Positions 29,175 to 63,944 of a DNA stretch of 64,000 bases are shown piece by piece (positions within the stretch are counted from its first letter, which is position 1; each line of letters starts with the position of its first letter). Source of the stretch: an uncultured Chloroflexia bacterium (GTDB taxonomy: Bacteria > Chloroflexota > Anaerolineae > CG2-30-64-16). The stretch covers positions 214,423 to 278,422 of the forward strand of contig CAWDBO010000021.1 of the NCBI GenBank assembly GCA_963800615.1, given 5' to 3'. The translations under genes were made by a program, and so were the position numbers. The notes under the pieces were generated by a model. That model did no database searches. It was not told the origin of the DNA and saw only the letters and a list, made by a program, of their open reading frames with translations.

Positions 29175-29669
29175 CGCACGCCTCCTCGCTCGGGCGCAGC
29201 ATCCCGGAGCTTCTCGGCCGCGACCTTCACCGCCTCGACAACCGGCCCGTACCCCGTACACCGGCAGAGGTTGCCCGAAATCGCTTCCTTGATCTCTTCG
29301 TCGGTGGGTTCGGGGTTCTGATCGAGCAGCGCTTTCGCCGCGATGATCAGGCCGCCCGTGCAGTAGCCGCACTGGACCGCGCCGAGGTCCGCGAAGGCCT
29401 CCTGCAGCGGGTGCGGGTGGTCGAGCGTGCCGACGCCCGCGGGCGTCAGCACGGGGAGCCCGTCCGCCTGCCACGCGAGGGTCAGGCAGGAATTGACCGG
29501 CTTTCCGTCGAGCAGCACCGCGCACGCGCCGCAATCGCCCTTCTCGCACCCGTTCTTCACGTCGGTATAGCCGAGGTCCCTGCAGCGCCTGCAGCAGCGT
29601 GATATTCGGCGTCAGCGCGGCGTAGTGGGTCCGGCCGTTGACGTTGAGCGTGATGACTTGTGGTTTCAT
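29171..29669 (-). CDS. Molybdenum hydroxylase set B, [2Fe-2S] small subunit; one frame break ~29575
   Basis: MKPQVITLNVNGRTHYAAL, then GCEKGDCGACAVLLDGKPVNSC, VQCGYCTGGLIIAAKALL and GNLCRCTGY. An ATGA overlap with the FAD subunit lies at 29666-29669. Confidence 0.85.
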
Positions 29670-43676: not shown

Positions 43677-46119
43677 GTGAACAGAAGATTCTGGGTACTT
43701 GTGGCTGTTGTCGCGCTCCTGGCCGGCCTACTAGGTGCGGCCGTCCCGGCCTCGGCACAGACGCCGTCCGGTGCATCTCAGATGCCCGCTAACCCCGAGA
43801 AGATCGAGCAGTTGCTCATCCGCCAGGGGCTCCTTTCAGTAAATGCGACCCCGGAGCAGAAAGATGCGGCTGTCCTGGCGTATCTGCAGCTCAAGAACAA
43901 GGGCGGCGGGCCCGATCGCAACTACAACCCGCTGGCTCGCAAGGCCGTAGATCACAATGAGGAAGTCTTGAACCAACTTGCAGCCAGCGACATCCGCGGG
44001 CGCAAGCTGGGCAACCGCGTCGAGGTGCCGTCTTCTACTCCCGCGTTTAAGCCACTCGTGGGACGAAGGCAAACTCCTGCTCATTGCCGTCGACTTCAGC
44101 GAACAGCCTTACACTTGGACTCCGAAGGAGCAGGATCCTCGCACGACCTCCGGTCCTCTGTACAACCAGATACCTAAGCCGAACAACAGCTTCGACCTAT
44201 GGGTCCCTGACTTCAACATCCAGCACTACGAGGATATGCTGTTCACGCCCGGTGGCTGGACGATTCCCGACGGCACCCCATACTACGCCGGCGAACACCG
44301 CGGCAGCATGCGCGATTACTTCTTGGCGCAATCGCTCGGTCAGTACACGGTCGCCGGAAAGGCGTACGGCTGGTTCACTGTCGACAAGCCGGAAGCCTTC
44401 TACGGCGACGACAACCCGACGGGTGGACACGACAACCTCGCACCTGGCAATACGGCAACCTTGATTAAAGATGCAGTCGACGTAATCAACAACGAGGGTG
44501 CCATTCCGTGGGAAGAATATGACACCAATGGCGACTGTGTCATCGATCATCCCCTATTCATCCACGCTGGTATTGACCAGTCGGGTGGAGGCGGGGCGCA
44601 AGGCAATGACGCGATCTGGGCGCACAGTTCGTCTGTCGAGCAGCAAGTCGCTGAACCAACTGCATCCTGCCCAGCCGGGATCTTTATCTACAACTACACG
44701 ATCATGCCCGAGGATGGCGGCGTTGGCGTGTTCGCTCATGAATTTGCTCATGATCTCGGCCTGCCCGACGAGTACGACACCGCCTACAGCGGCCGTGGTG
44801 ATTCCATAGCTTACTGGACGCTGCAGTCGAGCGGCTCCTGGATTGGCCGGCCCGCACAGACCCAGCCGTCCAGTATGAGCGTCTGGGCGCGCACGACCGT
44901 CGGCTGGCTAGCTTACAACGACACGGTGGCGCTGACTACGCTCGGCGCATTGGGCAAAGATCCCGTTGGAGTACGGCTGGAGCAATCGGAGCGCTGGGGT
45001 GGCGATGGCACGTTTGTTGGCGCGAGGATCAGTCTCCCACAGAAGCCTTTCTACGTGAACACCCCCCACAGCGGAAGCTACGAATGGTTCGGTGGCAAGG
45101 GTGATGAGATCGACAACACACTGGTTCGCTCGGTGGATCTCACCGGCAAGACCAGCGCCACACTTAACTTCTGGACTTGGTACGATATCGAGGAACAGTG
45201 GGACTATGGGTTTGTTCAGGTCTCGACAGACGGCGGCGTGACCTGGACCTCGCTGCCGATCGACGGCACAACGTCTGATGTTGTCGACGAAGGCTATCCG
45301 GCGATCAAGGACAACATGCCTGGCTTCACCGGCAACAGCGGCGGCTGGTTGGCAAAGACCTACGACTTGAAGGACTACGTCGGCAAGCCTATGATGCTTC
45401 AGTTCCGCTACATGACAGACTGGGGCACAAGCATGGCCGGGTTCTACGTCGACGATATCGGCGTCACGGCCGATGGCGCCTCCCTGTTCTTCGACGACGT
45501 CGAGACCGCGGACTCCGCCTGGACAGCAGACGGGTGGACCCGGGTCACCGGCAGCGACCTGAAAAACCACTACTACATGATGGAGTGGCGGAACCTCAAC
45601 AAGCTCGAGACACCGTACGATGGCTCCACTGTCGTCAACTTCGACAACGGACTGACTGAAGCCTACTCGTTCGACCCATATGCGAGCAATCCGGACGAGC
45701 CGTGGTACTTCAGCTACAATCCGGGCCTCTTGCTATGGTATCGCGACACCAGCTACACAGACAACTGGACGGGCACGCACCCAGGCGCCGGCTTCCTGCT
45801 CGTGGTCGATTCTCACTCGACCGCGATGCTCCGCCCGCCCTATCTCAACTATGGCAGCCTGCCCTGGACCAGCCGCGTTCAGACCTATGACTCGACCTTC
45901 AACATAGTCAAGACGTACGACGCCGTACTATCGTACTGGGGCAAGGAACGCAAGTACGCAGGTGCTGCCGGTGTTCCGAACTTCGATGATGGTCTATCGT
46001 ACTGGAGCCCGAAGGCGCCAGCCAACAGCGTGATCGTGCCGAAGTATGGTATCGTCTTCCGCGTCGCCGGCAGCGCGGCCGACGGTTCGGCCGCCGTGAT
46101 CGGGATCGGCAAGAAGTAA
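43677..46119 (+). CDS. Secreted immune-inhibitor-A-like metallopeptidase (family M6); one frame break ~44060
   Basis: GGAGG before GTG 43677; signal peptide MNRRFWVLVAVVALLAGLLGAAVPASA; zinc motif HEFAHDLGLPDEYD; MRDYFLAQSLGQY; FWTWYDIEEQWDYGFVQVSTDGG. Confidence 0.85.
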
Positions 46120-47164: not shown

Positions 47165-48001
47165 TTACTGCACGTCGAAGTACGGCGAGAGCACGTTCAG
47201 CGCCGTCTCGCGCGCCTTGACCGCCAGCTCGCACGGGTCCCAGGCCCAATACTCGGGCCGGAACAGCTCGACCGAGCAGACGCCGTCGTAGCCGTTGGCC
47301 TTCATGTGCTGGCAGATTTCGGCAAGGGGCACGATGCCGAGGCCGGGCAGCAGCCGGGTGGCGTCGGTGATCGCTTCCTTGGGCGTGTCCTCGAGGTCGT
47401 CGAGGTGGAACGCGAAGATTTTCTGCGGATCCAGCACGTCCAGCTCGCTCAGCAGCCCGCCGCCGCCGTAGAAGTGGGCGCAGTCGACCGTCATGCCCAC
47501 GTTCGCCCGGTCGGTCTTCTGCACGATCTCGTATGCCGCCCGCGGCGTCCGCACCGTACACCAGCCGAAGCCGAGGGATTCGAAGGACAGGTTCACGCCG
47601 TACGGCGCGGCGATGTCGGCCAGCTCCCGCAGCACCTTGACGTACTCGGCCACGACGTCTTCCCAGGGCAGGTTGCGGTCGGGCGTCGGGCTGGGCACGA
47701 CGACGATGCACGGGTTGCCGATCTCCTTGGAGATCTCACACAGCTCCACCAGCCGGGCCTTGATCTTGGCGTAATCTTCCGGCGTGCGGAACGCGATGAA
47801 TTCGATCGAGTTGATGCTCATGGGCGCGACGCCGTTATCGTCGAGCAGCGCCTTCAGCTCCGCGACCGAGTGGCTGGGCAGGTACTTGTCGAGCTTGTAG
47901 GCCCCGAGTTCGAGCGCCTTGAACCCCGCGGCCTTGGTCGCCGCAACGTCGGTCTCGAGGTCGCTGGTCATTGTGGTTGCACTGTGGAATCCTAGTTTCA
48001 T
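47165..48001 (-). CDS. Xylose-isomerase-like TIM-barrel protein (sugar phosphate isomerase/epimerase; IolI-like), intact
   Basis: [10 protein letters not shown]..., [28 protein letters not shown] and CSVELF, in an inositol gene neighbourhood. GAGGG precedes ATG 48001. Confidence 0.65.
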
Positions 48002-48023
48002 GACACCCTCGTTAGCGGTTTGT

Positions 48024-49043
48024 TTAGTAGAGGCTCGGGCGAGCCGGCGCCTCAACCGCAACCGGCTTTCCGCTTCTCAGCGATCTGACGCACGCGTCCG
48101 TTACGAGCAACGTCAGGTAGCCGTCCCATGCGCTGGCCCCCGCGAACGTCGCGCCTGACCGCACGGACTGAATCCACTCGCGCAGCTCGATGATGTACGC
48201 GTCCTGGAATCGTTCGAGCCAGTCGCCCGGGAGACCCACGCCTGCGGCAGCGCCAGACCGGACGAGCGCGCGATCAGGACGTCCCGACGTGGCGACCCCG
48301 CGTTCGCCGACGATCTCGGCCGTCACTTCGTATCCATACTCCGCGGCAGCGAATACCTCAACCGTTGCCAGGCAATCGCCGCTGAGCGACATCTGGAGCA
48401 GGAGCAGGTCGGTCGTCTCAGGACCAAAGGTGGCGTGCGAGCGTACACCGCTCACGTAGACCGTCTCGATTTCCTGGCCCAACAGCCACCGCACCGCGTC
48501 GATATCGTGACCGGCCGAGTTTGTGAGGATGACCTCGCCGCGGGAATCGTACGGAATGGCCACGTTGCGGTGTACGCCCTTGTACAGTACCGGCCGCCCC
48601 AACTTCCCAGCCGCCACGATCTCTCGCACCCCGGCGTGATACGGATCGAACCGCCGCATCAGGCCGACCGATACCAGTCGCCTGCCTGCAGCACATTCCG
48701 CTCCGACCGCCCGAGCGGCATCTTGTGCGCTCGTTGCCAGCGGCTTTTCGCACAGCACCGGTTTTCCGGCCTGAAGACATGCAAGGGTGAAGTCGAGATG
48801 GGTTGCGTCGGGCGACGCAATGATCACCGCATCAATGCCGGGGTCTTGAATCACGCGGAACGGGTCTTCGAAGACGGCGGACGAACCACACCGGGCTGCA
48901 GCCTGCCTGGCGCGCCCCGCATCGAGGTCATAGACAGCCGCCACCCGCGCGCCGGGGACTTGCTCTTGGAGGTTGCTCGCATGTCGGCTGCCCATCCCAC
49001 CAGCCCCGATCAGGCCAACGGAGATCTCCTTACGGTTGAGCAT
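48024..49043 (-). CDS. Gfo/Idh/MocA family oxidoreductase (inositol dehydrogenase-like), intact
   Basis: Rossmann motif [14 protein letters not shown], and the characteristic CEKPLATS. Confidence 0.75.
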
Positions 49044-49062
49044 CGGAACTCCGAAAAGTGGC

Positions 49063-49120
49063 GGGGATGAAGGGCGGCGGGGACGGACTCCCGTTCCCAT
49101 CCCCGCATCCCCCCATCCCC
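49063..49120. repeat. Imperfect GGGGATG-type inverted repeat
   Basis: GGGGATGAAGGGCGGCGGGGACGG / CCGTTCCCATCCCCGCATCCCCCCATCCCC, lying between the binding-protein stop and the dehydrogenase start. Confidence 0.75.
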
Positions 49121-49135
49121 TGCAGAGATGGTCGC

Positions 49136-51910
49136 TTACTTGGCGAAGTTAGCGACGTTGTCCTTGGAGACGACTTCGACGCCGGTGTTGACGAACTTGT
49201 CGACCGTTTGCCCGCGAGCGACCTTGGCCGCCGTCAGGGTGCCGAGCTCGCCGATCTTGGTCGGGAACTGGGCGACGGAGCCGGCCAGGCCACCGGCCTG
49301 GATCGAGGCCAGGGCATCGGGGGTCGCGTCGAAGCCGACGATGACAAGTTGCTTGCCGGCCGCCTTGGCTGCGTTGAGGGCGCCGAGGGCCATCTCGTCA
49401 TTGGTGGCGAAGATGCCCTTGAGGTTGGGGTTGGCCGTGAGCAGGTTCTCGGCCACGGTCTGGCCCTTGGCGCGGTCGGAATCCGCGGGCTGGACTGCGA
49501 CGACCTTGAGGCCGGCCTTCTCCAGGGCGGTCTTGGCGCCGTTCTCGCGCAGGTTGTGGACCGGATCGCCGGCTGCGCCGCGGATGATGGCGACCTCGTC
49601 GCCGGCCTTGAGGGCCTTGGCGATGAACTCGCCGCCGAGTTGGCCGCCGAGTTGGTTATCGGTGCCGACGAAGGCGGCCTTGTTGGCGAAGTTGGCGATG
49701 TCGGTGTCGATCAGGACGACCGGGATGCCGGCGGCGACAGCCTTCTCGAGGGTCGGCTGGACCTGGTCGGCCTGCGAAGGTGCGACCGCGATGGCATCGA
49801 CTTTGGAGGAGATCGCCGACTCGATGATGCGGATCTGGCCTTCGATGTCGGTTTCTTCGTTCGGGCCGAGGAAGGAGGCCTTGATCGTCGGGTCGGACTT
49901 CATGGCCGCGTCGACGCCCGCGCCGACGGTCTTCCAGTAGGTGCTGGTCACGGCCTTGACGATGACCGCGATGTTTACCGGCTTGTTTTCGCCACCCGCT
50001 GCAGGCGCCGCGAAGTTAGCGACGTTGTCCTTGGAGACGACTTCGACGCCGGTGTTGACGAACTTGTCGACCGTTTGCCCGCGAGCGACCTTGGCCGCCG
50101 TCAGGGTGCCGAGCTCGCCGATCTTGGTCGGGAACTGGGCGACGGAGCCGGCCAGGCCCCCGGCCTGGATCGAGGCCAGGGCATCGGGGGTCGCGTCGAA
50201 GCCGACGATGACAAGTTGCTTGCCGGCCGCCTTGGCTGCGTTGAGGGCGCCGAGGGCCATCTCGTCATTGGTGGCGAAGATGCCCTTGAGGTTGGGGTTG
50301 GCCGTGAGCAGGTTCTCGGCCACGGTCTGGCCCTTGGCGCGGTCGGAATCCGCGGGCTGGACTGCGACGACCTTGAGGCCGGCCTTCTCCAGGGCGGTCT
50401 TGGCGCCGTTCTCGCGCAGGTTGTGGACCGGATCGCCGGCTGCGCCGCGGATGATGGCGACCTCGTCGCCGGCCTTGAGGGCCTTGGCGATGAACTCGCC
50501 GCCGAGCTGGCCGCCGAGTTGGTTATCGGTGCCGACGAAGGCGGCCTTGTTGGCGAAGTTGGCGATGTCGGTGTCGATCAGGACGACCGGGATGCCGGCG
50601 GCGACAGCCTTCTCGAGGGTCGGCTGGACCTGGTCGGCCTGCGAAGGTGCGACCGCGATGGCATCGACTTTGGAGGAGATCGCCGACTCGATGATGCGGA
50701 TCTGGCCTTCGATATCGGTTTCTTCGTTCGGGCCGAGGAAGGAGGCCTTGATCGTCGGGTCGGACTTCATGGCCGCGTCGACGCCCGCGCCGACGGTCTT
50801 CCAGTAGGTGCTGGTCACGGCCTTGACGATGACCGCGATGTTTACCGGCTTGTTTTCGCCACCCGCTGCAGGCGCCGCGAAGTTAGCGACGTTGTCCTTG
50901 GAGACGACTTCGACGCCGGTGTTGACGAACTTGTCGACCGTTTGCCCGCGAGCGACCTTGGCCGCCGTCAGGGTGCCGAGCTCGCCGATCTTGGTCGGGA
51001 ACTGGGCGACGGAGCCGGCCAGGCCACCGGCCTGGATCGAGGCCAGGGCATCCGGGGTCGCGTCGAAGCCGACGATGACGAGTTGCTTGCCGGCCGCCTT
51101 GGCTGCGTTGAGGGCGCCGAGGGCCATCTCGTCATTGGTGGCGAAGATGCCCTTGAGGTTGGGGTTGGCGGTGAGCAGGTTCTCGGCCACGGTCTGGCCC
51201 TTGGCGCGGTCGGAATCCGCGGGCTGGACTGCGACGACCTTGAGGCCGGCCTTCTCCAGGGCGGTCTTGGCGCCATTCTCGCGCAGGTTGTGGACCGGAT
51301 CGCCGGCTGCGCCGCGGATGATGGCGACCTCGTCGCCGGCCTTGAGGGCCTTGGCGATGAACTCGCCGCCGAGCTGGCCGCCGAGTTGGTTATCGGTGCC
51401 GACGAAGGCGGCCTTGTTGGCGAAGTTGGCGATGTCGGTGTCGATCAGGACGACCGGGATGCCGGCGGCGACAGCCTTCTCGAGGGTCGGCTGGACCTGG
51501 TCGGCCTGCGAAGGTGCGACCGCGATGGCATCGACTTTGGAGGAGATCGCCGACTCGATGATGCGGATCTGGCCTTCGATGTCGGTTTCTTCGTTCGGGC
51601 CGAGGAAGGAGGCCTTGATCGTCGGGTCGGACTTCATGGCCGCGTCGACGCCCGCGCCGACGGTCTTCCAGTAGGTGCTGGTCACGGCCTTGACGATGAC
51701 CGCGATGTTTACCGGCTTGTTTTCGCCACCCGCTGCAGGCGCCGCGGTCGGTTGTTCGGCTGCCGGCGCTGTGGTCGGCTGGGCTGCCACAGTCGGGGCC
51801 GGGGCCGAAGTCGGTGCTGTGCCCTGGCTCGGTGCGGCCGGCGTGCAGCCCGCCAGAGCGATCAGGACGACAAGGCTGAGTGCCACAAGGATCTTGAGCT
51901 GGGACGACAT
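49136..51910 (-). CDS. Lipoprotein with three tandem, identical RbsB-type (type I periplasmic binding protein) sugar-binding domains, intact 924 codons
   Basis: Lipobox LIALAGC and a P/T/A linker, followed by a 289-aa unit repeated three times: APAAGGENKPVNIAVIVKAV...VVLIDTD...FATNDEMALGA...VGFDATP...VSKDNVANFA. Confidence 0.85.
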   Translation of the reverse strand: MSSQLKILVALSLVVLIALAGCTPAAPSQGTAPTSAPAPTVAAQPTTAPAAEQPTAAPAAGGENKPVNIAVIVKAVTSTYWKTVGAGVDAAMKSDPTIKASFLGPNEETDIEGQIRIIESAISSKVDAIAVAPSQADQVQPTLEKAVAAGIPVVLIDTDIANFANKAAFVGTDNQLGGQLGGEFIAKALKAGDEVAIIRGAAGDPVHNLRENGAKTALEKAGLKVVAVQPADSDRAKGQTVAENLLTANPNLKGIFATNDEMALGALNAAKAAGKQLVIVGFDATPDALASIQAGGLAGSVAQFPTKIGELGTLTAAKVARGQTVDKFVNTGVEVVSKDNVANFAAPAAGGENKPVNIAVIVKAVTSTYWKTVGAGVDAAMKSDPTIKASFLGPNEETDIEGQIRIIESAISSKVDAIAVAPSQADQVQPTLEKAVAAGIPVVLIDTDIANFANKAAFVGTDNQLGGQLGGEFIAKALKAGDEVAIIRGAAGDPVHNLRENGAKTALEKAGLKVVAVQPADSDRAKGQTVAENLLTANPNLKGIFATNDEMALGALNAAKAAGKQLVIVGFDATPDALASIQAGGLAGSVAQFPTKIGELGTLTAAKVARGQTVDKFVNTGVEVVSKDNVANFAAPAAGGENKPVNIAVIVKAVTSTYWKTVGAGVDAAMKSDPTIKASFLGPNEETDIEGQIRIIESAISSKVDAIAVAPSQADQVQPTLEKAVAAGIPVVLIDTDIANFANKAAFVGTDNQLGGQLGGEFIAKALKAGDEVAIIRGAAGDPVHNLRENGAKTALEKAGLKVVAVQPADSDRAKGQTVAENLLTANPNLKGIFATNDEMALGALNAAKAAGKQLVIVGFDATPDALASIQAGGLAGSVAQFPTKIGELGTLTAAKVARGQTVDKFVNTGVEVVSKDNVANFAK
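49144..51744. repeat. Tandem repeat, 3 copies x 867 bp, >99% identical
   Basis: CGAAGTTAGC recurs at 49144, 50011 and 50878. I found 7 variable columns by eye, at copy-1 coordinates 49292, 49319, 49346, 49436, 49541, 49640 and 49847. Confidence 0.95.
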
Positions 51911-52077
51911 GTTATTCTCCCCCTATACGATCTGAGATGATCTGCGGATGTCTGTTCGTCAATAGGACGCAATCGTCGCCGTGGTCCGGATCTTCACCTC
52001 CTTTCGTACGTGGCGACGCCCGGAGGTAGCTTTTCGGCCGAGTGCTCCCGGCCGTGCAACAGGACGCATGTGGGCGA

Positions 52078-53081
52078 TTATCGCCGCGCCCGCTGGCGCA
52101 GCACGTCGACGTACACCGCTCCGATGATCACAAGGCCAATCGCCACGATCTGCCACTCTGTCGGTACCTTTAGAAGCACCAGGCCATTGCGCAGCACGGC
52201 GATCAACGCCACACCGACGGCCGTTCCCCATACTGTGCCCGAGCCGCCCGCGAAGCTCGCACCGCCGATGATCACCGCCGCGATCGCATCGAGTTCGTAA
52301 CCCGTTCCCGCCGTCGGATAGCCCGAGTTCGTCCGGCCGGCCAGCGTGAGCGCCGCGAGCCCTGCCATCAAGCCCGCTGGTGCTATACACGATGAGCAGG
52401 GTGCGGTCCACGTTGATGCCCGAGAGGCGGGCCGCCGATTGGTTGCCGCCGACCGCATAGATGTGCCGGCCTAACGCAGTGTCGGAAAGCAGCAGGTGGA
52501 AGACGATGTAGACGAGGATCACGGCGATCAAGGCCACGGGGACGACGCCGATAGCGTCCGGCTCCCAGCACCAACACCTGCGGTGCGCCCGCCCGATCAA
52601 AGCCCGAGATGGGCGCAGCGCCGGTAATGATGAGCGCCAGGCCGCGCGCGACGTTCATGGTGCCCAGGGTGGAGATGAAGGGATGAGGTAGGTGCAGCCG
52701 GGTCAGCAGCAGACCGTTGACCATCCCCAAGCCCAGCCCGACCGCCAGGCACGCAAGCACTGCGAGAAATGGGTTGACGTGCATCTTGATGATCAGCATC
52801 GCCAGTACGCTCATCGACAGCGCCAGAATCGAGCCAACCGAGAGGTCGATGCCGGCGGTGACGATGCACAGAAGCATGCCGACGGCTAATAGCGCGTTGA
52901 CTGTCGCCTGCCGGGCAATGTTCGCAATGTTGTCCGGCGTCAGGAAGACGGGCGACAGGATCGAGAGCACGATCACCAGGATAGCGAGGCCGAACAGCGC
53001 GCCGAACCTCGCGACGAATGAGCCCGCCGTCATGCCGAACGTCCGGGCTTCCTTTTTCTCTGTGGCGGGCATGCTAGTCAT
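52078..53081 (-). CDS. Ribose-type sugar ABC transporter permease (RbsC-like); 2 frame breaks (~52590, ~52440)
   Basis: FLTPDNIANIARQATVNALLAVGMLLCIVTAGIDLSVGS, RHIYAVGGNQSAARLSGINV and ELDAIAAVIIGGASFAGGSGTVWGT come from ORFs 52383.., 51959.. and 52078... Confidence 0.8.
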
Positions 53082-54639
53082 CTTGATGTGCTCCCATCGC
53101 GGCTGCCAGGACATTCTCTTCGGTCGCATCCTGGCGACTGATCTCGGCTGCGATTCTGCCCTCGTGCATCACCAGGATCCGGTCGCTCATGCCAAGGAGT
53201 TCAGGCATTTCGGAGGACACCATGATCACTGCGACCCCACTATGCACAAGGGTGTTCATGAGGTTGTACACTTCCACCTTCGCGCCGACGTCGATGCCGC
53301 GCGTCGGCTCGTCGAAGATCAGGATCTTCGATTGGCTCGCCAACCATTTGGCAAGCACCACTTTCTGCTGGTTCCCGCCGCTCAGGTACTGCACCTGCTG
53401 GTTCACGCTCGGGGTTGCAATGCGCAGCTTGTCCACGAACTCGCCGGCCTGCCGCCGCTCATCACCCCTGCGCAACAGCAGGTTGGTAGTGAGCTTGTCC
53501 AGGCTGGCCATGCTCATGTTGTGAAGCACCGAAAGCATGAGGACCAGCCCTTGCTGCTTGCGGTCCTCCGGCAGAAGCCCGAGGCCCGCGTGGATCGCCT
53601 GTTGGGGCGACTTCACGTCGATCTTCTTTCCAAAGACGTAAATGTTGCCCGCGTCGATACGATCCGCGCCGAAGACGGCTCTCATGAGCTCAGTGCGACC
53701 AGCGCCGACGAGGCCGGCAATGCCGAGGATCTCGCCTGTGTACGCGCTGAAGCTGATGTCATGCAACAGTCCTTCTCGTTTCAGACCTTCCACGCGCAGC
53801 GCCTCTTCGCCCCGAATGGTTTCCACCTTCGGATACTGCTGCTCCAGGTTCCGCCCGACCATCATGCGGATCAGGTCTTCCTTGGTCACGTTCGCCAGAT
53901 CCACTGTGTCGATGTATTCGCCGTCGCGGAGGACGGTGCCCCGGTCGCAGATCTCGAGAACCTCCTCGAGGTGGTGCGAGATGAACACGACCGAGACGCC
54001 CTTTTCTTTCAGGCGCCGGATCACGGTAAACAATTGGTTGATTTCGGTGTCGGTTAGCGCGCTCGTCGGCTCATCCATGATCAATAACTTTGCGTCGAGC
54101 GACAGGGCCTTAGCAATCTCGACCATCTGCTGTTGGGCCACGCCCAGGCCCGCCACCGGCCGCCGTGGATCGAGCGGCAGGTGTACCTCGTCGAGAAGAG
54201 CCTTGGTCTTGCGGCGCATTTCCTTCCAGTCGATCAACTGGAGCGAGCGATTGCGGTAGGGCTCGCGGCTGATCCAGACGTTCTCGGCAATGCTCAGCTG
54301 CGGAACCAGGTTGAATTCCTGGTAGATGATGCCGATACCGATCTTCTGCGCCTCGCGAGGGTTGGGGATGGTGATGGGCTTGCCTTCCCAGATGATCTCG
54401 CCGGAGTCGCGGCCGTAGGCGCCCGACAGGATCTTCATCAGGGTCGACTTGCCCGCGCCGTTCTCGCCAAGCAGCGCGTGCACTTCGCCCCTGCGCACCT
54501 CCATGTGCACGTTGTGCAGCGCTCGGACGCCGGGGAAGCTCTTCGAGATGCCCTCCAGCCGGAGCAAGGCGTCGCCGCCGTTTTGCTCACCGGAATGCGC
54601 TACTTCTGTCAACACCGCATCCCCTCCTTTCATGCCCAT
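53074..54639 (-). CDS. Sugar ABC transporter ATP-binding protein (RbsA-like, two ABC domains), intact
   Basis: GENGAGKST, QQQMVEIAKAL and LIMDEPTSAL in the first domain; GLVGAGRTE, LSGGNQQKVVLAKWL and IFDEPTRGID in the second. Confidence 0.9.
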   Translation of the reverse strand: MGMKGGDAVLTEVAHSGEQNGGDALLRLEGISKSFPGVRALHNVHMEVRRGEVHALLGENGAGKSTLMKILSGAYGRDSGEIIWEGKPITIPNPREAQKIGIGIIYQEFNLVPQLSIAENVWISREPYRNRSLQLIDWKEMRRKTKALLDEVHLPLDPRRPVAGLGVAQQQMVEIAKALSLDAKLLIMDEPTSALTDTEINQLFTVIRRLKEKGVSVVFISHHLEEVLEICDRGTVLRDGEYIDTVDLANVTKEDLIRMMVGRNLEQQYPKVETIRGEEALRVEGLKREGLLHDISFSAYTGEILGIAGLVGAGRTELMRAVFGADRIDAGNIYVFGKKIDVKSPQQAIHAGLGLLPEDRKQQGLVLMLSVLHNMSMASLDKLTTNLLLRRGDERRQAGEFVDKLRIATPSVNQQVQYLSGGNQQKVVLAKWLASQSKILIFDEPTRGIDVGAKVEVYNLMNTLVHSGVAVIMVSSEMPELLGMSDRILVMHEGRIAAEISRQDATEENVLAAAMGAHQDD

Positions 54640-54657: not shown

Positions 54658-55674
54658 TCAGCCGATCTCGCTCAGCTTGACCGGCCGGCCTTCCTTGTGC
54701 GACTTGATGGCGGCCAGCCCCATGACGACGGGCACCCGGGCATCGTACCCGGTGACCGGCGCCGGCTTGTCGTTCAGCACCGCGTCGACGAACGCTGCGA
54801 CCTCGGTCGCAAAGCTCTCCGTGTAGCGGTCCATGAAGAAGTTCAGCGGCAGGTCGCGGCGGACGCTCGCGCCGTCGCTGAGCGTGGCGGCATTCGGGTA
54901 GTTGTTCGACGTTGCGATCGCGCCCTTGCTGCCCAGCACCTCGACCCGCTGGTCGTAGCCGTAGGTCGCGCGGCGGCAGTTGTCGATGGTCCCGATGACG
55001 CCGTTGGCGAAGCGCAGCATCACGACCGCGGTGTCCACGTCGCCGGCCTCGCCGATCGCCGGGTCGACCGTGATGCCCGCCTGCGTGTAGATCTCCTCCA
55101 CGTCCGCGCCGATCAGGAAGCGGGCCATGTCGAAGTCGTGAATCGTCATGTCCAGGAACATGCCGCCCGACACCTTCACGTAGGCGATGGGCGGAGGTCC
55201 CGGGTCGCGGCTGATGATGTGGAGCAGGGCGGGGGTGCCAACCTCGCCGGTAACGATGGCCTGGCGGACGCGGGCAAAGTTCGCGTCGAACCGGCGGTTG
55301 AAGCCGACCTGCAGCTTGACGCCCGCAGCCTTGACCGCCTCGAGCGTGCTGTCGATCTCGGCGAGGTTCAGCGCGATCGGCTTCTCGCAGAAGATATGCT
55401 TGCCCGCCTGTGCCGCGGCCGTGGTCAGTTTCGCATGCGTGTCGGTCGCAGAGCAAATGAAGACCGCGTCCACGTCCTTGCTCTCGATCACGGCCATTGC
55501 ATCGTCTGAGACGGCCGGGATGTTGAACTGAGCGGCCGCTTGCTGTGCCGCGGCCAGGTTGACGTCTGCCACTGCCGTGAGCTTCGCACACGGCACGCGA
55601 TATGCAAGAGTTGCCGCGTGCACCTTGCCGATGCGTCCGGCCCCGATGAGGCCGACGTTCAGGGTGTCTGCCAT
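54658..55674 (-). CDS. iolG: myo-Inositol 2-dehydrogenase (Gfo/Idh/MocA family), intact
   Basis: VGLIGAGRIGKVHA, FCEKPIAL, VGFNRRFD and MTIHDFDMARF, in an iol gene neighbourhood. Confidence 0.75.
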   Translation of the reverse strand: MADTLNVGLIGAGRIGKVHAATLAYRVPCAKLTAVADVNLAAAQQAAAQFNIPAVSDDAMAVIESKDVDAVFICSATDTHAKLTTAAAQAGKHIFCEKPIALNLAEIDSTLEAVKAAGVKLQVGFNRRFDANFARVRQAIVTGEVGTPALLHIISRDPGPPPIAYVKVSGGMFLDMTIHDFDMARFLIGADVEEIYTQAGITVDPAIGEAGDVDTAVVMLRFANGVIGTIDNCRRATYGYDQRVEVLGSKGAIATSNNYPNAATLSDGASVRRDLPLNFFMDRYTESFATEVAAFVDAVLNDKPAPVTGYDARVPVVMGLAAIKSHKEGRPVKLSEIG

Positions 55675-55758: not shown

Positions 55759-56686
55759 TTACAAACCGATCGACCGCAGATACTCGCGGTTCCGCCGCGC
55801 GCTTTCCTTGGGCTTGCCCATGCCGGGCAGGATGTCCTGCTCGACGATGCCCCATTGGATGTCGGGCCGGGTGTCGAGCCAGCGGGCGACCGCGGGGAAG
55901 TCGACCCCGCCCTGGCCCAGCTCGCAGAACACGCCGTGCCCCAGCGACTGGAAATAGTCCCACCCCTCGGCGCGCGACTGCGCGGCGACGCCGGGATGGC
56001 AGTCCTTGAAGTGGATGTACCAGATGCGATCGGCGAAGCGCTCGAGGCCCTCGGCCACCGCGGCGCAGTCACCTGCCGCAAACGCGTAGTGTCCGGTGTC
56101 GAAGACCAGGCCCAGGATGTTCGCGTCCGTCATACTGAGCAAACGGGCGATTTCGTCGGGCGTTTCGACATAACCCGCGCAGTGATGGTGGAACACCGTG
56201 CGCAGGCCCGTTTCTTCGAAGACCGAGCACGCCACCTTTTCCGCCCCAGCGGCGAACACCTTCCACTCCTCGTCGCTCAGCCCCATCTCAGGCGTGACCC
56301 GGCCCGCGTTCTGCGTGCGGACGGGGACGCGTGCCGTTGTTGTCCGCAAGGACGAGGAAGGGCAGATAGCCAGTCGTCCGGTCGGCTGCTGCGCGCAGCA
56401 GACGCGCCACCTTCAGCGCGGCCTCGACGCCGGGCGCATGCGCGTCCGGGTCCTTCAGCGCCACGGGCACGAACGCGCCGAGCATCGTCAGGTTCCGGCT
56501 GTTAAGCTCCGCGGCGAGCTTGTCCGGGTCGGTCGGCATGAACCCCCAGTCGCCCAGTTCCGTGCCGATGTAGCCGGTCTCCACGAGCTCGTTCAGTACC
56601 TGGGTGCAGCCCGCGACTTCGCCTTCCAGCTCAAACTCCAGCTGCCCCCATGAACACGGGGCGTTGCCGATCTTGATGTTTGCCAT
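55759..56686 (-). CDS. iolE: Inosose dehydratase-like TIM-barrel protein; one frame break ~56330
   Basis: GGAGGAATC precedes ATG 56686. [14 protein letters not shown] is at the tail of ORF 56288..58186; [25 protein letters not shown] and HFKDC are in ORF 55759..56349. Confidence 0.6.
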
Positions 56687-56704
56687 GATTCCTCCTTTGC
56701 TTCC

Positions 56705-56824
56705 GGGAGAAACCAGGTTTCTGGGAGAAACCTGGTTTCTTTGATCCCCTACCGGTTCGGCATTGGAGAAACCAGGTTTCTCGCAGAAACCTGGTTTCTT
56801 CGTTCCACTTACCGGTTCGGCATC
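56705..56824. repeat. Two tandem ~60-nt units, each a palindrome pair (GAGAAACCAGGTTTCT..AGAAACCTGGTTTCT) plus ACCGGTTCGGCAT
   Basis: ACCGGTTCGGCAT occurs at 56751-56763 and at 56811-56823. The second copy encodes the last codons (MPNR-stop) of the aldehyde dehydrogenase. Confidence 0.9.
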
Positions 56825-58335
56825 GAAATCATGCCGTCCCACGAGTTCAGCACCCGCCCCTCGCGCGCCTCCTCTTCCGAGAACCAGTGCGCGGTCACGC
56901 TCTTCTGTTCCGTAAAGAAGCGCACGCCGTCCGTGCCCATCGCGTGCAGGTCGCTGAAGAAGGAGTTCTTGTGGCCCGTGAAGCCGAACACGCCCAGCGG
57001 AACGGGGATGCCCACGTTCACGCCCACCATGCCGCCGTCGGTTCGCTTCGCAAACTCGCGGGCGTAGTAGCCGCTCTGCGTGTAGATCACCGAGCCGTTC
57101 GCGAACTCGTTGGCATTCATGAGCTCGACGCCTTCGTCGAAGTCCTTCACCCGCTTGATGCACAGCACCGGGCCGAAGATCTCCCGGTCGCCGATCGTCA
57201 TCCCGGACTTGACGTGATCGAACAGCGTCGGCCCCAGGTAGAAGCCGTCCTCGTAACCGGGCACGCTCGTGCCGCGGCCGTCGAGCACCAGCTCCGCGCC
57301 TTCCTCGACGCCCTTCTCGATCCACTTGATCACCGACTCGCGGTGCTCCGCGTTGACCATCGGGCCGAGTTGGCTGCCTTTGTCGTACGCCGGCCCGAGC
57401 TTCAGGTCCTGCATGAGGCGCTTCAGCACCGCGACCAGGTCGTCCGCGATCGCCTCTTCGGCCACCACGACCGGCAGCGCCATGCAGCGCTCGCCCGCGC
57501 AGCCGCACGCGGAGTTGATGATGCCGCGGGCGCTGCGCTCCAGCGCCGCGTCCTTCAGCACGAGCGCGTGGTTCTTCGCCTCGGTCAGCGCCTGGACGCG
57601 CTTGCCGTTCGATGCGGCGGTCGCGTAGATGTGCTTGCCGACGCTCGTCGAGCCGACAAAGGAAATGCCCTTCACGTGCGGATGGCGCAGCAGGATTTCG
57701 GCCTCGTTGCGCGAGCAGGTCACCAGGTTCAGCACGCCGGCCGGCAGCCCGGCCTCGACCCACAGGTCGCAGATGCGCATGGAGGTGTGCGGCGTGAAGC
57801 TGGCCGCCTTGATCACCATGGTGTTGCCCGTGGCGATGCACAGCGGGGCCATCCAGCCCATCGGGATCATCGCGGGGAAGTTCCACGGCGCGATGCCGGC
57901 GAACACGCCGACCGGCTCCATGTACTGCGTCGTGTCGTACCCGGTGGTGCAGTTCATGAGCGCGGGGCCCTTCATCAGGTGAGGGATGCCGCACGCGAAC
58001 TCCACGACCTCGGTGACCTTCAGCACGTCGCCCATGGCCTCGTCCCAGACCTTGCCGTGCTCCTGGGCCACCAAGTAGGTCAGCTCTTCCAGGTGCTTGT
58101 CGAGCAGCGCCTTCATTCTGAAGAGGACCTGCACCCGCTTTGACGCCGGCGTGTCGGCCCACGGCCGGAAGGCCGCCTGCGCGCACTCGATCGCTTCCTC
58201 CACCTCAGCGGCGGTGCACTGGGGCGCCTGTGCGATGACCTCGCCGGTCGACGGGTCATAGCAGTCCATGTACCGGGTGGTCTTCGATTCGCGCCATTCG
58301 TTGCCCACGAAATAGCCGAGTTTCTGCGTTGTCAT
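56809..58335 (-). CDS. mmsA: CoA-acylating methylmalonate/malonate-semialdehyde dehydrogenase, intact
   Basis: GGGAG-type SD before ATG 58335. APWNFPAMIPMGW, FVGSTSVGKHIY, EAKNHALV, CGCAGERCMA and GVNVGIPVP. No glutamate follows the catalytic-Cys region, as is typical for MmsA/IolA. Confidence 0.85.
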   Translation of the reverse strand: MTTQKLGYFVGNEWRESKTTRYMDCYDPSTGEVIAQAPQCTAAEVEEAIECAQAAFRPWADTPASKRVQVLFRMKALLDKHLEELTYLVAQEHGKVWDEAMGDVLKVTEVVEFACGIPHLMKGPALMNCTTGYDTTQYMEPVGVFAGIAPWNFPAMIPMGWMAPLCIATGNTMVIKAASFTPHTSMRICDLWVEAGLPAGVLNLVTCSRNEAEILLRHPHVKGISFVGSTSVGKHIYATAASNGKRVQALTEAKNHALVLKDAALERSARGIINSACGCAGERCMALPVVVAEEAIADDLVAVLKRLMQDLKLGPAYDKGSQLGPMVNAEHRESVIKWIEKGVEEGAELVLDGRGTSVPGYEDGFYLGPTLFDHVKSGMTIGDREIFGPVLCIKRVKDFDEGVELMNANEFANGSVIYTQSGYYAREFAKRTDGGMVGVNVGIPVPLGVFGFTGHKNSFFSDLHAMGTDGVRFFTEQKSVTAHWFSEEEAREGRVLNSWDGMISMPNR

Positions 58336-58357
58336 CCTTAACTCCCTTTGGTAAATG

Positions 58358-59830
58358 TTAGAATTTCCGCGCCCATTCGCCGAGCCAGCGCTCGACCACG
58401 ACTTTCGTCTGCGTGAAGAACTCGACGGCATGTTTGCCCTGAGCGTGCAGCGTGCCGAAGAAGCTGTTCTTCCAGCCGCTGAACGGGAAGAACGCCATCG
58501 GCGCCGCGACGCCGATGTTGATCCCGATGTTACCGGCCTCGGCCTCGTAGCGGAACTTCCGGGCCGCCGCGCCGCTGCTCGTGAAGACGCAGGCCATGTT
58601 ACCGTATTCGCCGCCGTTCACCAGCCTGATCGCGTCGTCCACCGTCTCGACCCGCATCACGCCGAGAACGGGACCGAACAATTCCGTCCTGGCGATGGTT
58701 CCGGCCGGGCGATGTCGCTGATGATGGTCGGCCGCAGGAAGTAACCCTGCTCGTAACCCTGGATGTTCGCGTTCCGGCCGTCAACCACCATCTCCGCGCC
58801 CTCATCGAGCCCCTTCTGGATCAGCCCCTGGATGCGCGCCTTGCTCTGCTGGGTGATCACCGGCCCCATGTCGACGCCATGCTCCAGCCCGTTGCCGACG
58901 ACCCGGCTCTGGGCTGCCTCGGCCAGGTGCGGTATGAAGATCTTGTCCGCATCGCCGACCGTGACCGCCAGGGATGCCGCGAGGCACCGCTGGCCCGCGT
59001 TGCCGAACGCGCTATCGGTCACGATCCTGGTCGTCAGGTCCACGTCCGCGTCGGGCAGGATGATGAGCGGGTTCTTCGCGCCGCCTTGGGCCTGCACCCG
59101 CTTCCCGTTTGCCGAGGCCCGGCTGTAGATGTGCCGCGCGACCGGGGTCGAGCCGACGAAGGTCACGGCCGAGATGGCCGGGTGATCGAGCAGCGCATTG
59201 ACGGTGTCCGCGCCGCCGTTGACCAGGTTCACCACGCCTTTCGGGAAGCCGGCCTGGTCGAGCAGCCCGAACATCTTCTGCAGCGTCATCGGGCAGCGCT
59301 CCGACGGCTTGACGATGGCCGTGTTGCCGCAGGCCAGCGCATAGGGCAGGTACCAGAACGGGATCATGGCCGGGAAGTTGAACGGGCAGATGATGGCGGC
59401 CACGCCGACCGGCTGGCGGATCATGTACTCGTCGATCCCGCGGGCGATGTCCTCTGAGAAGTCGCCCATCATCAGCGTCGGGATGCCCGCGGCGGTCTCC
59501 ACGTTCTCGATCGCTCGCCGCATCTCGCCGCGTGCGTCGTCGAGCATCTTGCCGTTCTCCATCACGATCGTGCGGGCCAGTTCCTCGAAATGCTCCTCCA
59601 TAAGCGTCTTCAGCTTGAAAAGGTACTGGATGCGGGCGGGAGCAGGCACCCGGCGCCACGCCGGGAACGCTGCCGCTGCCAGCCGAGCCGCCTCGTCCAC
59701 CTCGCTTGGCGGCGACAGCGGCACCTTCGCCAATCACTTCGGCGGTTGCCGGGTTAGTCACATCCAGGTAGCTTTCAGCCGCCGATTCGCGCCACTCGCC
59801 GTTTACATAATTCCGCAGTCTCTCTGCCAT
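58358..59830 (-). CDS. Second methylmalonate-semialdehyde dehydrogenase-family paralog; frame breaks ~59735 and ~58680
   Basis: [59 protein letters not shown] and [24 protein letters not shown] come from ORFs 59012.., 58657.. and 58358... Confidence 0.8.
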
Positions 59831-59931: not shown

Positions 59932-61846
<1,915 letters not shown>

Positions 61847-61882: not shown

Positions 61883-62790
61883 CTAGACGGTCTCGGGGAC
61901 CGGGTAAATCGGCACGCGGGGGTCGAGGCCCCGGTACGAGTCTTTGATCCAGGCGTAATCGGGATCGTCCTTGGCCGCCAGGCTCTGCGCCGAGCCGGCC
62001 AGCACGTTCAGGTAGTAGGTGGTGTATCCCACGGGGCTGGACACGGGATGGTAGCCCTCGGGGATCAGCACCACGTCGTCGTTGCGCGCGATCACGGCTG
62101 CATCGATCGGGTAACCGGCCGCATGGAGCGGGGACTCCGCGTCGGTGTAGATCCGCTGCAGCGCGTACCCTTCCGGCCGGTCGATCTTATAGTAGTAGAT
62201 CTCGTCCAGGTCGGCCTGCGCGAGGCTGCCGTCGGGCCTGGCGATGTGCACGTCGTGCTTGTGCGGGGGATAGCTCGACCAGTTGCCGCCCGGCGTATAG
62301 ACTTCGACGACCACGAGCCGCTGGCAGGGGAACCCGGGCGGCATCATGCGGTTGATCTGCCGGGTCGCGTGGTCGCCGCCGCGTATCTCGACGGTCACGT
62401 CGGCCGGCGTAACGAGGCGGGCCGGGAATTCCTGGTCGGCCGCCGCCCAGGCAACGGCAAACTCGGCGTCCGTCGCGGCGGTCACGGTGAAGGCCGTGTC
62501 TGACGGGCAAATAGAGCGCATGGGGCAGGCCGGCGAAGACGTTCGCCGCGCTCGCCCAGGCCCGACCACTCCCCGCGGTTCGACCGGACGTCGACCGTGC
62601 CGCCCAGCACCACCAGCGCCAGCTCGTGGCGCCCCGTCTCGAAGCCCCAGCTCTCGCCCGCCGCGAGCCGGCGCGCCTGGAAGGAGATCGTATCCCAGCC
62701 CGCACGCTCGGGCGTCACGTCGACGATCACGTCCGGGTTGGCTGCCGGAGCAGGATGGATAACCAGGTTCTCAGAGTTGTATTGGCGCAT
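61883..62790 (-). CDS. iolB: 5-deoxy-glucuronate isomerase; 2 frame breaks (~62545, ~62490)
   Basis: TPGGNWSSYPPHKHD, EIYYYKIDRPEGYALQRIY and VVLIPEGYHPV in ORF 61883..62569. The N-terminus MRQYNSENLVIHPA is in ORF 62482..62829. Confidence 0.8.
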
Positions 62791-62857: not shown

Positions 62858-63944
62858 TCAGCAGGACACGTCGGCAGGAAGCTCGATGTTGGGCCGCACC
62901 TGGATCGTCACGGGCGGGACGGGGCCGGTGCTGCAGCGCACCACGAGCTCGACCGGCACCACCACGTCTTCCACGGGTTCGTCCTGCATCAGTTTGAGGA
63001 GCATCTCCGCCGCAAGCTGGCCCAGGCGCAGCTTGGGCTGGTGGATCGTCGTCAGGGGCGGCGTGACGTACTGCGCCAGGTCGACGCCGTCAAAACCCAC
63101 GATGCTGACCTGGTCGGGCACGGCGATGCCGAGCCTGCGGCACGCTGAGCAGCGCGCCCACCGCGTGCATGTCGTTGTAGCAGAAGGCCGCGGTGATGCC
63201 GTGTCGCAGCGCCTCCAGCATGAGCTGCTCGCCGTCTTCCACGTCGTCCGAGTACGTGCGGCGTTCGGGCGAGGCCTGCTGGATCCAGCCGTCCTTGACC
63301 TCGATGCCGCGCTTCCGCCAGCGCGTCGCAGTAGCCGGCCATGCGCTGGCGGTTCGAGGGCGGCCGGTTCGTGGCGCCCAGGTACGCGATGGCGGTGTGC
63401 CCGAGCGCCAGCAGGTGGCGGACGGCTTGCTGTCCACCCGCATGGCTGTCGACCTGCACGGTGCGAAACCCGGGATGCTCGCCTTCCGCCTGGCGGTTGA
63501 TGAGCACGGTCGGCGTTCCGCTCCGCGCCAGCTTCTCCAACTGCTCCTCGCGTCAGCCGGGACGAAGCCGTGATGATCCCTTCGACCCGGCGGCGCCGGA
63601 ACGACTCGATCACCGCCATTTCTTCGTCGGCGCGGTTGTACGACACGCCGAGAAACACGTCCACGTCCGACCTGCCGCGCCACTTCGTCGACCCCGCGCA
63701 CCAAGCGGCCGTAGAACGGGTCGGCGATCGACGTGACGACCAGCCCGATGGTGTTGGTGCGCTGGCCCTTCAGGCTCTGCGCGACCGCGTTCGGCGTATA
63801 GCCCATCTGCCCGGCCAGCCGCTGGATGTTCTCCCGAACCTCGGCGCTGATCAGCGAGCTGCCCCGCAGCGCCCGTGAGACGGTGGCGTGCGAAACGCCC
63901 GCCGCCTGCGCGATGTCCTGGATCGAGACCGAGCGTCCGCTCAT
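62858..63944 (-). CDS. LacI family transcriptional regulator; 4 or more frame breaks
   Basis: HTH VSIQDIAQAAGVSHATVSRALRG...RENIQRLAGQMGYTPNAVAQSLKG. Sugar-binding core TIGLVVTSIADPFY, GTPTVLINR, GHTAIAYLG and SIVGFDGVDLAQYVTPPLTTIHQP, spread over three frames. Confidence 0.8.

Follow-up and report, generated by a model that had tools for sequence, protein, structure and literature searches.

Nearly all work on tandem substrate-binding domains has concerned GlnPQ, whose domains differ from one another and are fused to the permease. In the GlnPQ-type importers of Lactococcus lactis and other Gram-positive bacteria, these domains are distinguished by both their specificity and their affinity (PMC8025302). 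The subject of this analysis is a binding-protein gene on the minus strand of a 64,000-nucleotide stretch of DNA (the window; contig CAWDBO010000021.1 of assembly GCA_963800615.1, positions 214,423 to 278,422) from an uncultured Chloroflexia bacterium. It encodes a lipoprotein with three identical domains of the type that binds sugars. The feature is judged to be real, and while tandem binding domains are already known, what is new here is a free homo-tandem lipoprotein under concerted evolution, for which the three-copy state is rare. With a probability of roughly 0.7, the gene specifies a genuine lipoprotein of a CUT2-type importer within an inositol (iol) operon of Anaerolineae, where an old tandem duplication has been homogenised and, in the window, recently expanded.

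Like GlnPQ, the window protein places at least two complete extracytoplasmic binding domains head to tail with short linkers (~10 residues in this case) and tethers them to the membrane of a cell that lacks a periplasm, an arrangement that would multiply the binding sites close to the translocator. Unlike GlnPQ, the lipoprotein is not joined to the permease, its gene having a Shine-Dalgarno sequence of its own and a 48-nucleotide (nt) gap to the permease gene, and its domains are identical and belong to the type I, sugar-binding class. The GlnPQ domains have a different fold class (type II, amino-acid-binding).

The RbsB/AlsB-type proteins of CUT2 systems (Protein Data Bank (PDB): 2ioy, 1dbp, 1gub and 4wut) provide another comparison. 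As in those systems, each unit of 289 amino acids (aa) is a full Peripla_BP_4 domain and is encoded beside an RbsA-like fused ATP-binding cassette (ABC) ATPase and an RbsC-like permease. RbsB and AlsB have a single domain, whereas the window protein has three, and the unit scored 164–166 bits with the RbsB and AlsB equivalog models of NCBIfam, whose cut-offs are ~335 (for RbsB, NF007936, 164.4 bits with a cut-off of 337). The first binding-loop motif also differs, being TSTYW in the window unit and NNPFF in the aligned 2ioy sequence, and the operon context points to inositol, not ribose.

An orthologue from a cultured organism is P0031 of Pelolinea submarina MO-CFX1 (locus L009), which has 72–78% amino-acid identity and shares both the operon and the layout of lipoprotein signal and tether. 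Its copies are also homogenised, with a nucleotide identity of 93.7%; however, they are less identical than those of the window, and there are two of them rather than three. The two-domain protein of P. submarina and other Anaerolineae carries the generic annotation 'sugar ABC transporter substrate-binding protein', and a paper describing its architecture was not found in the literature search. With respect to tandem or duplicated binding-protein lipoproteins, the same search found only work on the GlnPQ type, which is weak evidence given that most subscription journals were outside its scope. At the DNA level, the streptococcal alpha C and Rib proteins offer a parallel, as they are built from in-frame, DNA-identical repeats of ~80–130 aa that vary in number through homologous recombination. 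In contrast to those structural or antigenic modules, the window unit of 289 aa makes up an entire receptor domain that binds the ligand of a transport system.

Three copies of a binding domain in one gene

The open reading frame (ORF) at 49136–51910 (minus strand) consists of 924 codons and a stop codon with no interruption. Within it, an 867-bp unit is repeated 3.0 times head to tail (49143–51745), with copies starting at 49143, 50010 and 50877 and homology extending to ~51745, as determined by direct comparison and a repeat search. Tandem Repeats Finder is blind to this unit since its longest period is 500. An earlier note, made from the letters of the window, had placed the copies at 49144, 50011 and 50878 in a single uninterrupted ORF of 924 codons behind a lipoprotein signal; the starts agree within 1 nt and the remainder was found as described. 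A strong Shine-Dalgarno sequence, GGGGGAG, can be read 7 nt 5' of the ATG (51917–51923) and gives good support to this start codon. The amino terminus, MSSQLKILVALSLVVLIALAGC, includes a signal peptide (51845–51910) with an L-A-G-C lipobox in which Cys22 is the predicted lipidation site, a residue that is nearly invariant in the homologue alignment (at least 90% conserved). A Pro/Ala/Thr-rich tether of ~40 residues (aa 23–62, 51725–51844), predicted to be disordered, leads to binding domain 1 and its linker (aa 63–351, 50858–51724), binding domain 2 and its linker (aa 352–640, 49991–50857) and binding domain 3 (aa 641–924, 49139–49990), which ends with NVANFAK and the stop codon.

The three DNA copies are in frame and 99.3–99.7% identical, with pairwise differences of 3, 5 and 6, and the protein units are 100% identical. 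Exactly seven columns vary (49292, 49319, 49346, 49436, 49541, 49640 and 49847), all at codon position 3 and all synonymous, which bears out the earlier count at every coordinate. An eighth synonymous difference, GCC versus GCG, is located in an edge codon at 49142–49144. Private variants are present in each copy (1, 2 and 4), with the set of four in domain 1. Random substitutions in the unit would be synonymous in only 25.5–29.6% of cases, which gives a probability under neutrality of 7e-5 to 2e-4 for seven of seven, slightly stronger than the (1/3)^7 that had been estimated previously. The absence of nonsynonymous changes is compatible with ordinary purifying selection acting on very young copies.

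Pfam analysis identified three full-length Peripla_BP_4 domains (PF13407) with a score of 623 bits against a cut-off of 35.1, and the best stretch covered profile positions 1–257 of 258. The description of the copies as real, selected coding sequence in which each unit is a complete type I binding-protein domain is supported. An AlphaFold2 prediction calculated from a 26-sequence alignment produced three well-folded units with a predicted local distance difference test score (pLDDT) of ~90; the mean pLDDT was 86 and the predicted template modelling score (pTM) was 0.41. Since low confidence was confined to residues 21–61 in the tether (pLDDT < 50) and to the short linkers at residues 347–352 and 635–640, the domains are expected to fold independently. 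In the model, a predicted lipid anchor is followed by three complete binding domains that are flexibly strung together. The nearest solved structures are single-domain ribose/allose-type binding proteins (PDB: 2ioy, 4wut, 1dbp and 1gub), the best match being 2ioy with an identity of roughly 40% as judged by eye from the alignment. Two PDB entries, 'MSD1' and 'MSD3', were considered as natural multi-domain binding proteins; both names are used in a 2025 protein-design paper (PMC12630938) and the entries were taken to be engineered.

Two further features of the repeat sequence may be mentioned. A 12-bp micro-repeat, GCCGCCGAGTTG, occurs in 2.1 copies at 49631–49655 and at the equivalent positions +867 and +1734, where it encodes QLGGQLGG. 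The variant at 49640 (CAA versus CAG) falls inside it such that the micro-repeat is perfect only in the copy at 49143–50009. On the plus strand, antisense ORFs extend across the repeat, one of 960 aa (49058–51940) and two of 288 aa each (49941–50807 and 50808–51674). These are read as shadow ORFs of a gene with 67% G+C and 89% G+C at the third codon position, and not as genes.

Probable concerted evolution in a family with one, two or three domains

The earlier note implied that the protein was unique and proposed a search for homologues with two or three domains. A whole-protein search returned 43 two-domain homologues of 509–640 aa (P0002–P0043) and three with three domains, namely P0001 (915 aa, 77% identical), P0044 and P0045, placing the three-domain state in two further lineages (P0001 and P0044/P0045). 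With at least 43 two-domain relatives, the window protein is not unique; rather, free lipoproteins in which two RbsB-like domains are nearly identical make up a large family. From a genome scan, the carriers are Anaerolineae-type Chloroflexota genomes and metagenomes with the same iol/rbsAC-type operon where it was examined. Two copies are present in the long-read or complete genomes L001, L002, L003, L008, L009 and L012, of which L009 is the complete genome of the cultured isolate P. submarina MO-CFX1 and L012 is Candidatus Ribeiella danica; a Bellilinea metagenome-assembled genome (MAG), L007, also has two. The nearest genome to the window, L001, is the long-read MAG MFD02979.bin.2.155, which belongs to a different species and is syntenic and 91% identical in nucleotide sequence. 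A single copy occupies the same operon in L015, a long-read complete chromosome. P0001 is encoded in this operon as well, on L080, an independent contig from JGI. At the DNA level its three copies share no more than 87–92% identity, which excludes assembly stutter as the source of this three-domain architecture. A scan of metagenomes gave no relative with more than 88% tblastn identity to the repeat unit.

In a comparison of 45 homologues and the window protein, the domains of one protein share 88–100% identity with their siblings and a median of ~80% with those of other proteins. For 27 non-redundant proteins (<95% identity), the nearest neighbour of a domain is its sibling in 52 of 57 cases, and the five exceptions pair first domain with first domain or second with second in another species. 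The proportion of synonymous differences (pS) within a gene is 0.02–0.03 in the window, L001, L007, L010 and L014, and 0.07–0.47 in L012, L009, L006 and L008, as compared with saturated values of 0.55–0.75 between species, where the ratio of nonsynonymous to synonymous divergence (dN/dS) is 0.02–0.19. Over the family, the nucleotide identity of siblings forms a continuum from 85% to 99.5%. In a Pelolinea-like subclade, the first domain ends with the tail NITTYKPDAxP and the second with NVAEFK, and both tails are kept across species with cores that differ by 10–20%. Since the copy-specific tails are conserved across species, the duplication must be old and the cores homogenised. Differences at four-fold sites are clustered toward one end of the unit in L006, L007, L010 and L014 (P ≤ 0.007); no significant clustering into tracts was detected in L001, L009, L012 and L008. 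Taken together, these sequence comparisons bear the classical marks of concerted evolution, in which an ancestral tandem duplication is homogenised by gene conversion or unequal exchange. This leading explanation of the near-identity, with intragenic recombination acting on an old duplication with a copy number of 1–3 among orthologues, had been missed at first reading.

When the window variants are polarised with L001, domains 2 and 3 share a derived CTT codon and domain 1 holds most of the private changes. This shared codon and the two-copy state of L001 suggest a recent expansion from two units to three by duplication of the distal unit. The pattern fits such a duplication followed by a few mutations, with sites too few to decide the matter or to fix the crossover point. 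A simple unequal crossover, with a middle copy derived on its left from old copy 2 and on its right from old copy 1, did not give a clean fit.

A mechanism may be proposed in which two tandem domains represent the normal state of the clade, following a duplication ancestral to it. RecA-type intragenic recombination between direct repeats of ~870 bp, by gene conversion and unequal sister-strand exchange, would keep the copies alike, and the same process could alter their number to one, two or three. The few mutations acquired since the expansion would all be synonymous owing to ordinary purifying selection on each domain and to the very young age of the copies (pS ~0.02–0.03). The domains probably all bind one inositol-like ligand and are probably all able to dock on the RbsC-like permease, and several identical domains on one anchor may place binding sites more densely around the translocator in a cell that has no periplasm. 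For repeats of such size and identity, ready loss by recombination would be expected, yet they persist across the clade, and so two or more domains would appear to be selectively favoured. The suggestion that triplication might increase the local concentration of receptor is plausible; the accompanying term 'avidity' is inapplicable to a monovalent small ligand.

Homo-tandem binding proteins are not limited to this family. A search with one unit against 1.84 billion cluster representatives gave 18,351 matches, and of the best 150, approximately 31 had two matched stretches. Of 30 two-stretch representatives examined, the domains were 75–100% identical in 20 and ~30% identical in 8. Many unrelated clusters at 50% identity contain homo-tandem CUT2 binding proteins, and one such cluster includes proteins from Oscillospiraceae MAGs so that the arrangement is not confined to Chloroflexota. 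It is apparently a recurrent, undescribed architecture. A more speculative and at present doubtful extension is that homo-tandem binding-protein lipoproteins form a widespread class maintained by selection in bacteria without an outer membrane, and that their domain number sets uptake capacity like a 'dosage dial' that is both heritable and reversible. If true, the class would span Chloroflexota and at least some Firmicutes, the window would represent a natural three-domain setting, and intragenic recombination would both keep whole receptor domains identical and cause close relatives to differ in how many they have (1, 2 or 3). Within one type of operon, the free lipoproteins of this family have one, two or three identical domains; they make up a natural series on what extra domains do for an ABC importer, and with P. 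submarina as a cultured member, this series could be used to test capture rate, rebinding and competition for docking. The family also provides a case in which whole functional domains of 289 aa evolve in concert inside a bacterial gene, and the 20 of 30 two-domain representatives suggest some generality.

Other domain arrangements were encountered in the same searches. Two-domain Peripla_BP_4 proteins (P0090–P0230) split into those with siblings that are 61–100% identical (most at least 75%) and those with siblings at ~30%. P0046–P0049 are lipoproteins of 714–785 aa that combine one RbsB-like Peripla_BP_4 domain with a C-terminal part of ~400 residues; in two of them, P0046 and P0047, an SBP_bac_1-type domain (PF01547) is among the precomputed Pfam assignments, which would join two classes of binding protein in one polypeptide. 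P0052–P0072 and P0077–P0086 consist of an RbsC- or RhaP-like permease (PF02653) with a C-terminal Peripla_BP_4 domain. Among sugar transporters, these are the counterparts of GlnPQ and OpuA, whose binding domains are likewise fused to the permease.

Assembly quality and competing explanations

Several points weigh against the view that the window holds a genuine three-domain lipoprotein produced by concerted evolution and recent expansion. The exact protein is not on record in a collection of 15 billion proteins, and the nearest long-read relative, L001, has two copies. The window's own differences lack a significant tract structure. Where the copies of a relative have diverged little, 32% of their differences are nonsynonymous; measured by this rate, none of 7–8 in the window is slightly low (P ~0.05–0.07), and none of 7 is not exceptional (P ~0.07). 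The unit reached no NCBIfam equivalog cut-off and its best structural match, 2ioy, is at ~40% identity, so that homology does not assign a ligand. Any selective benefit from carrying several identical domains is putative. Finally, the count of exactly three comes from one error-rich assembly, and real frame shifts in the permease gene and iolD would leave the operon inactive.

The extent of the assembly errors can be estimated. At least 14 frame breaks were verified in the 39–64 kb portion (near 52553, 52340, 60403, 60870, 61045, 61305, 62550, 58709, 56345, 42357, 42849 and 39420, among others), and ~21 abutting coding-like fragments on the same strand were found over all 64 kb. Four breaks are in iolD and two in the permease, with others in iolB, the LacI-family regulator, the iolE-like gene, the methylmalonate-semialdehyde dehydrogenase (MMSDH) gene and unrelated genes. 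With regard to homopolymers, there was neither a clear pattern at the frame breaks nor a clear lack of them in the binding-protein gene. The freedom from indels over 2.6 kb to which the earlier note drew attention is true; however, with 0.3–0.8 breaks per kb, a 2.8-kb gene would escape them all with a probability of ~0.1–0.4 and another intact stretch of 2.3 kb is present at 26853–29177, so that it is not significant. Because the breaks are spread over the whole window and related MAGs of the MFD series (L002, L003 and L041) show similar ones, the sequence looks like a noisy, unpolished long-read assembly rather than an operon in decay. Long reads normally resolve a repeat of 2.6 kb and random errors would not strike third positions only; on this basis, it is probable that the three copies are real.

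The most direct challenge is that the gene truly has two domains and that a third unit was introduced by a noisy assembler or polisher, or by the merging of strains, with the seven differences being strain polymorphisms. The two copies of L001, the abundance of indel-type frame breaks and the absence of the exact protein from the large collection are all in keeping with this, and polymorphisms between strains of a constrained gene would be mostly synonymous too. This explanation is nonetheless rather improbable, since the repeat is shorter than typical long reads and its copy number would normally be resolved, each copy carries private variants, and the junctions are clean, in frame and free of indels. 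In addition, independent three-domain genes with diverged copies exist and copy number demonstrably varies among orthologues. If instead the frame shifts were taken at face value, with four in iolD, two in the permease and others in iolB and the LacI regulator, the triple-domain gene would be a functionless relic of a decaying operon. The breaks affect unrelated genes over all 64 kb, as is typical of sequencing error, the relatives from long-read MAGs are similarly broken, and the binding-protein copies are under purifying selection (0 of 7–8 nonsynonymous), all of which makes decay very unlikely.

The near-identity of the copies has also to be considered apart from their number. Strong selection on the protein alone, in the complete absence of recombination, would agree with the 100% identity of the window protein units and with a family that is well conserved between species. 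Synonymous sites are homogenised as well, with pS of ~0.02 within the gene as opposed to 0.55–0.75 between species; protein-level selection cannot explain this, and the proposal is already contradicted to the point of having almost no standing. A birth and death process, with independent recent duplications in each lineage instead of homogenisation of an old one, has in its favour that a fresh duplication would yield near-identical siblings, that a single-copy orthologue is found in L015, and that homo-tandem proteins occur in many unrelated families. It is still quite unlikely. The domain junction and the copy-specific carboxy-terminal tails are conserved across species with cores that are 10–20% different, the five domains that do not pair with a sibling pair with their positional equivalent in another species, and sibling divergence is continuous from 85% to 99.5% with clustered differences.

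For a genuine, homogenised family with variable domain number, a practical consequence concerns short-read data. Several short-read contigs end inside the repeat (L004, L005, L016 and L022) and others present a single-domain version of a protein known elsewhere with two. L096 (3866–4810) joins a Pelolinea signal peptide to the tail of the second domain, and L084 (3423–4517) joins a P0010/P0011-like amino terminus to the ending DNLDKFMK. Either these are true one-copy recombinants or their repeats were collapsed by the assembler. Since short-read assemblies often stop at the repeat or contain a single copy of it, the number of domains that public metagenome catalogues give for such genes is unreliable.

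The inositol operon and its surroundings

The minus strand bears a cluster for inositol catabolism in which the binding-protein gene comes last among the transporter genes, and its position beside RbsA/RbsC-like partners, as claimed previously, was supported by profile searches that identified the cluster genes. In the order of transcription, these encode a LacI regulator, IolB, IolD, MMSDH-type and second aldehyde dehydrogenases, an IolE-like protein and IolG, followed by the RbsA-like ATPase, the RbsC-like permease, the binding protein, a second IolG-like oxidoreductase and a TIM-barrel protein. The same context is found in L080, L001, L009 and L015. From this context, the ligand is probably inositol (myo-inositol) or a related cyclitol or sugar.

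The RbsC-like permease gene (BPD_transp_2 by Pfam; 52081–53150) has two frame shifts in the assembly. Its intact orthologue in L001 (8663–9664) scored 253 bits with the ribose permease model, below the cut-off of 398. The permease ORF ends at 51959 and the ATG of the binding-protein gene is at 51910, which makes these separate genes. The RbsA-like ATPase gene (53074–54639) is intact and encodes two fused nucleotide-binding domains (two ABC_tran matches; 629 bits, below the RbsA cut-off of 745). All of these genes and those described next are on the minus strand.

The iolG gene for inositol 2-dehydrogenase (54658–55674) is well supported by TIGR04380 (456.9 bits, cut-off 355). The iolE-like gene for myo-inosose-2 dehydratase (55762–56695) has one frame break, and its L007 orthologue scored 206 bits with TIGR04379, below the cut-off of 290. 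An intact aldehyde-dehydrogenase gene of 540 aa (56809–58431) adjoins the MMSDH gene (iolA-type; 58361–59733), which contains one frame break and whose L007 orthologue reached 547 bits with TIGR01722 (cut-off 448). The iolD gene (59941–61846) has four breaks in the assembly and an L001 orthologue with 910 bits for TIGR04377 (cut-off 715). It is preceded in the operon by iolB (KduI/IolB family by Pfam; 61898–62790; one break) and the LacI-family regulator gene (62984–63938; at least two breaks), which heads the operon in L080 and L015 too. An iolC kinase was not identified in the window.

Directly downstream of the binding-protein gene is the gene for the second IolG-like oxidoreductase (48024–49100), assigned by Pfam to the GFO/IDH/MocA family. 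It scored 255 bits with the model for bifunctional inositol / D-chiro-inositol dehydrogenase, below the cut-off of 540. The gene that follows (47165–48061) encodes a xylose-isomerase-like TIM-barrel protein (AP_endonuc_2 by Pfam).

Beyond the operon, an InhA-like M6 metallopeptidase with catalytic, MAM and VEG domains is encoded on the plus strand at 43978–46119. This stretch has the lowest G+C content of the window (59% at 44–46 kb compared to 66.7% overall), and the metallopeptidase gene may have been acquired horizontally.

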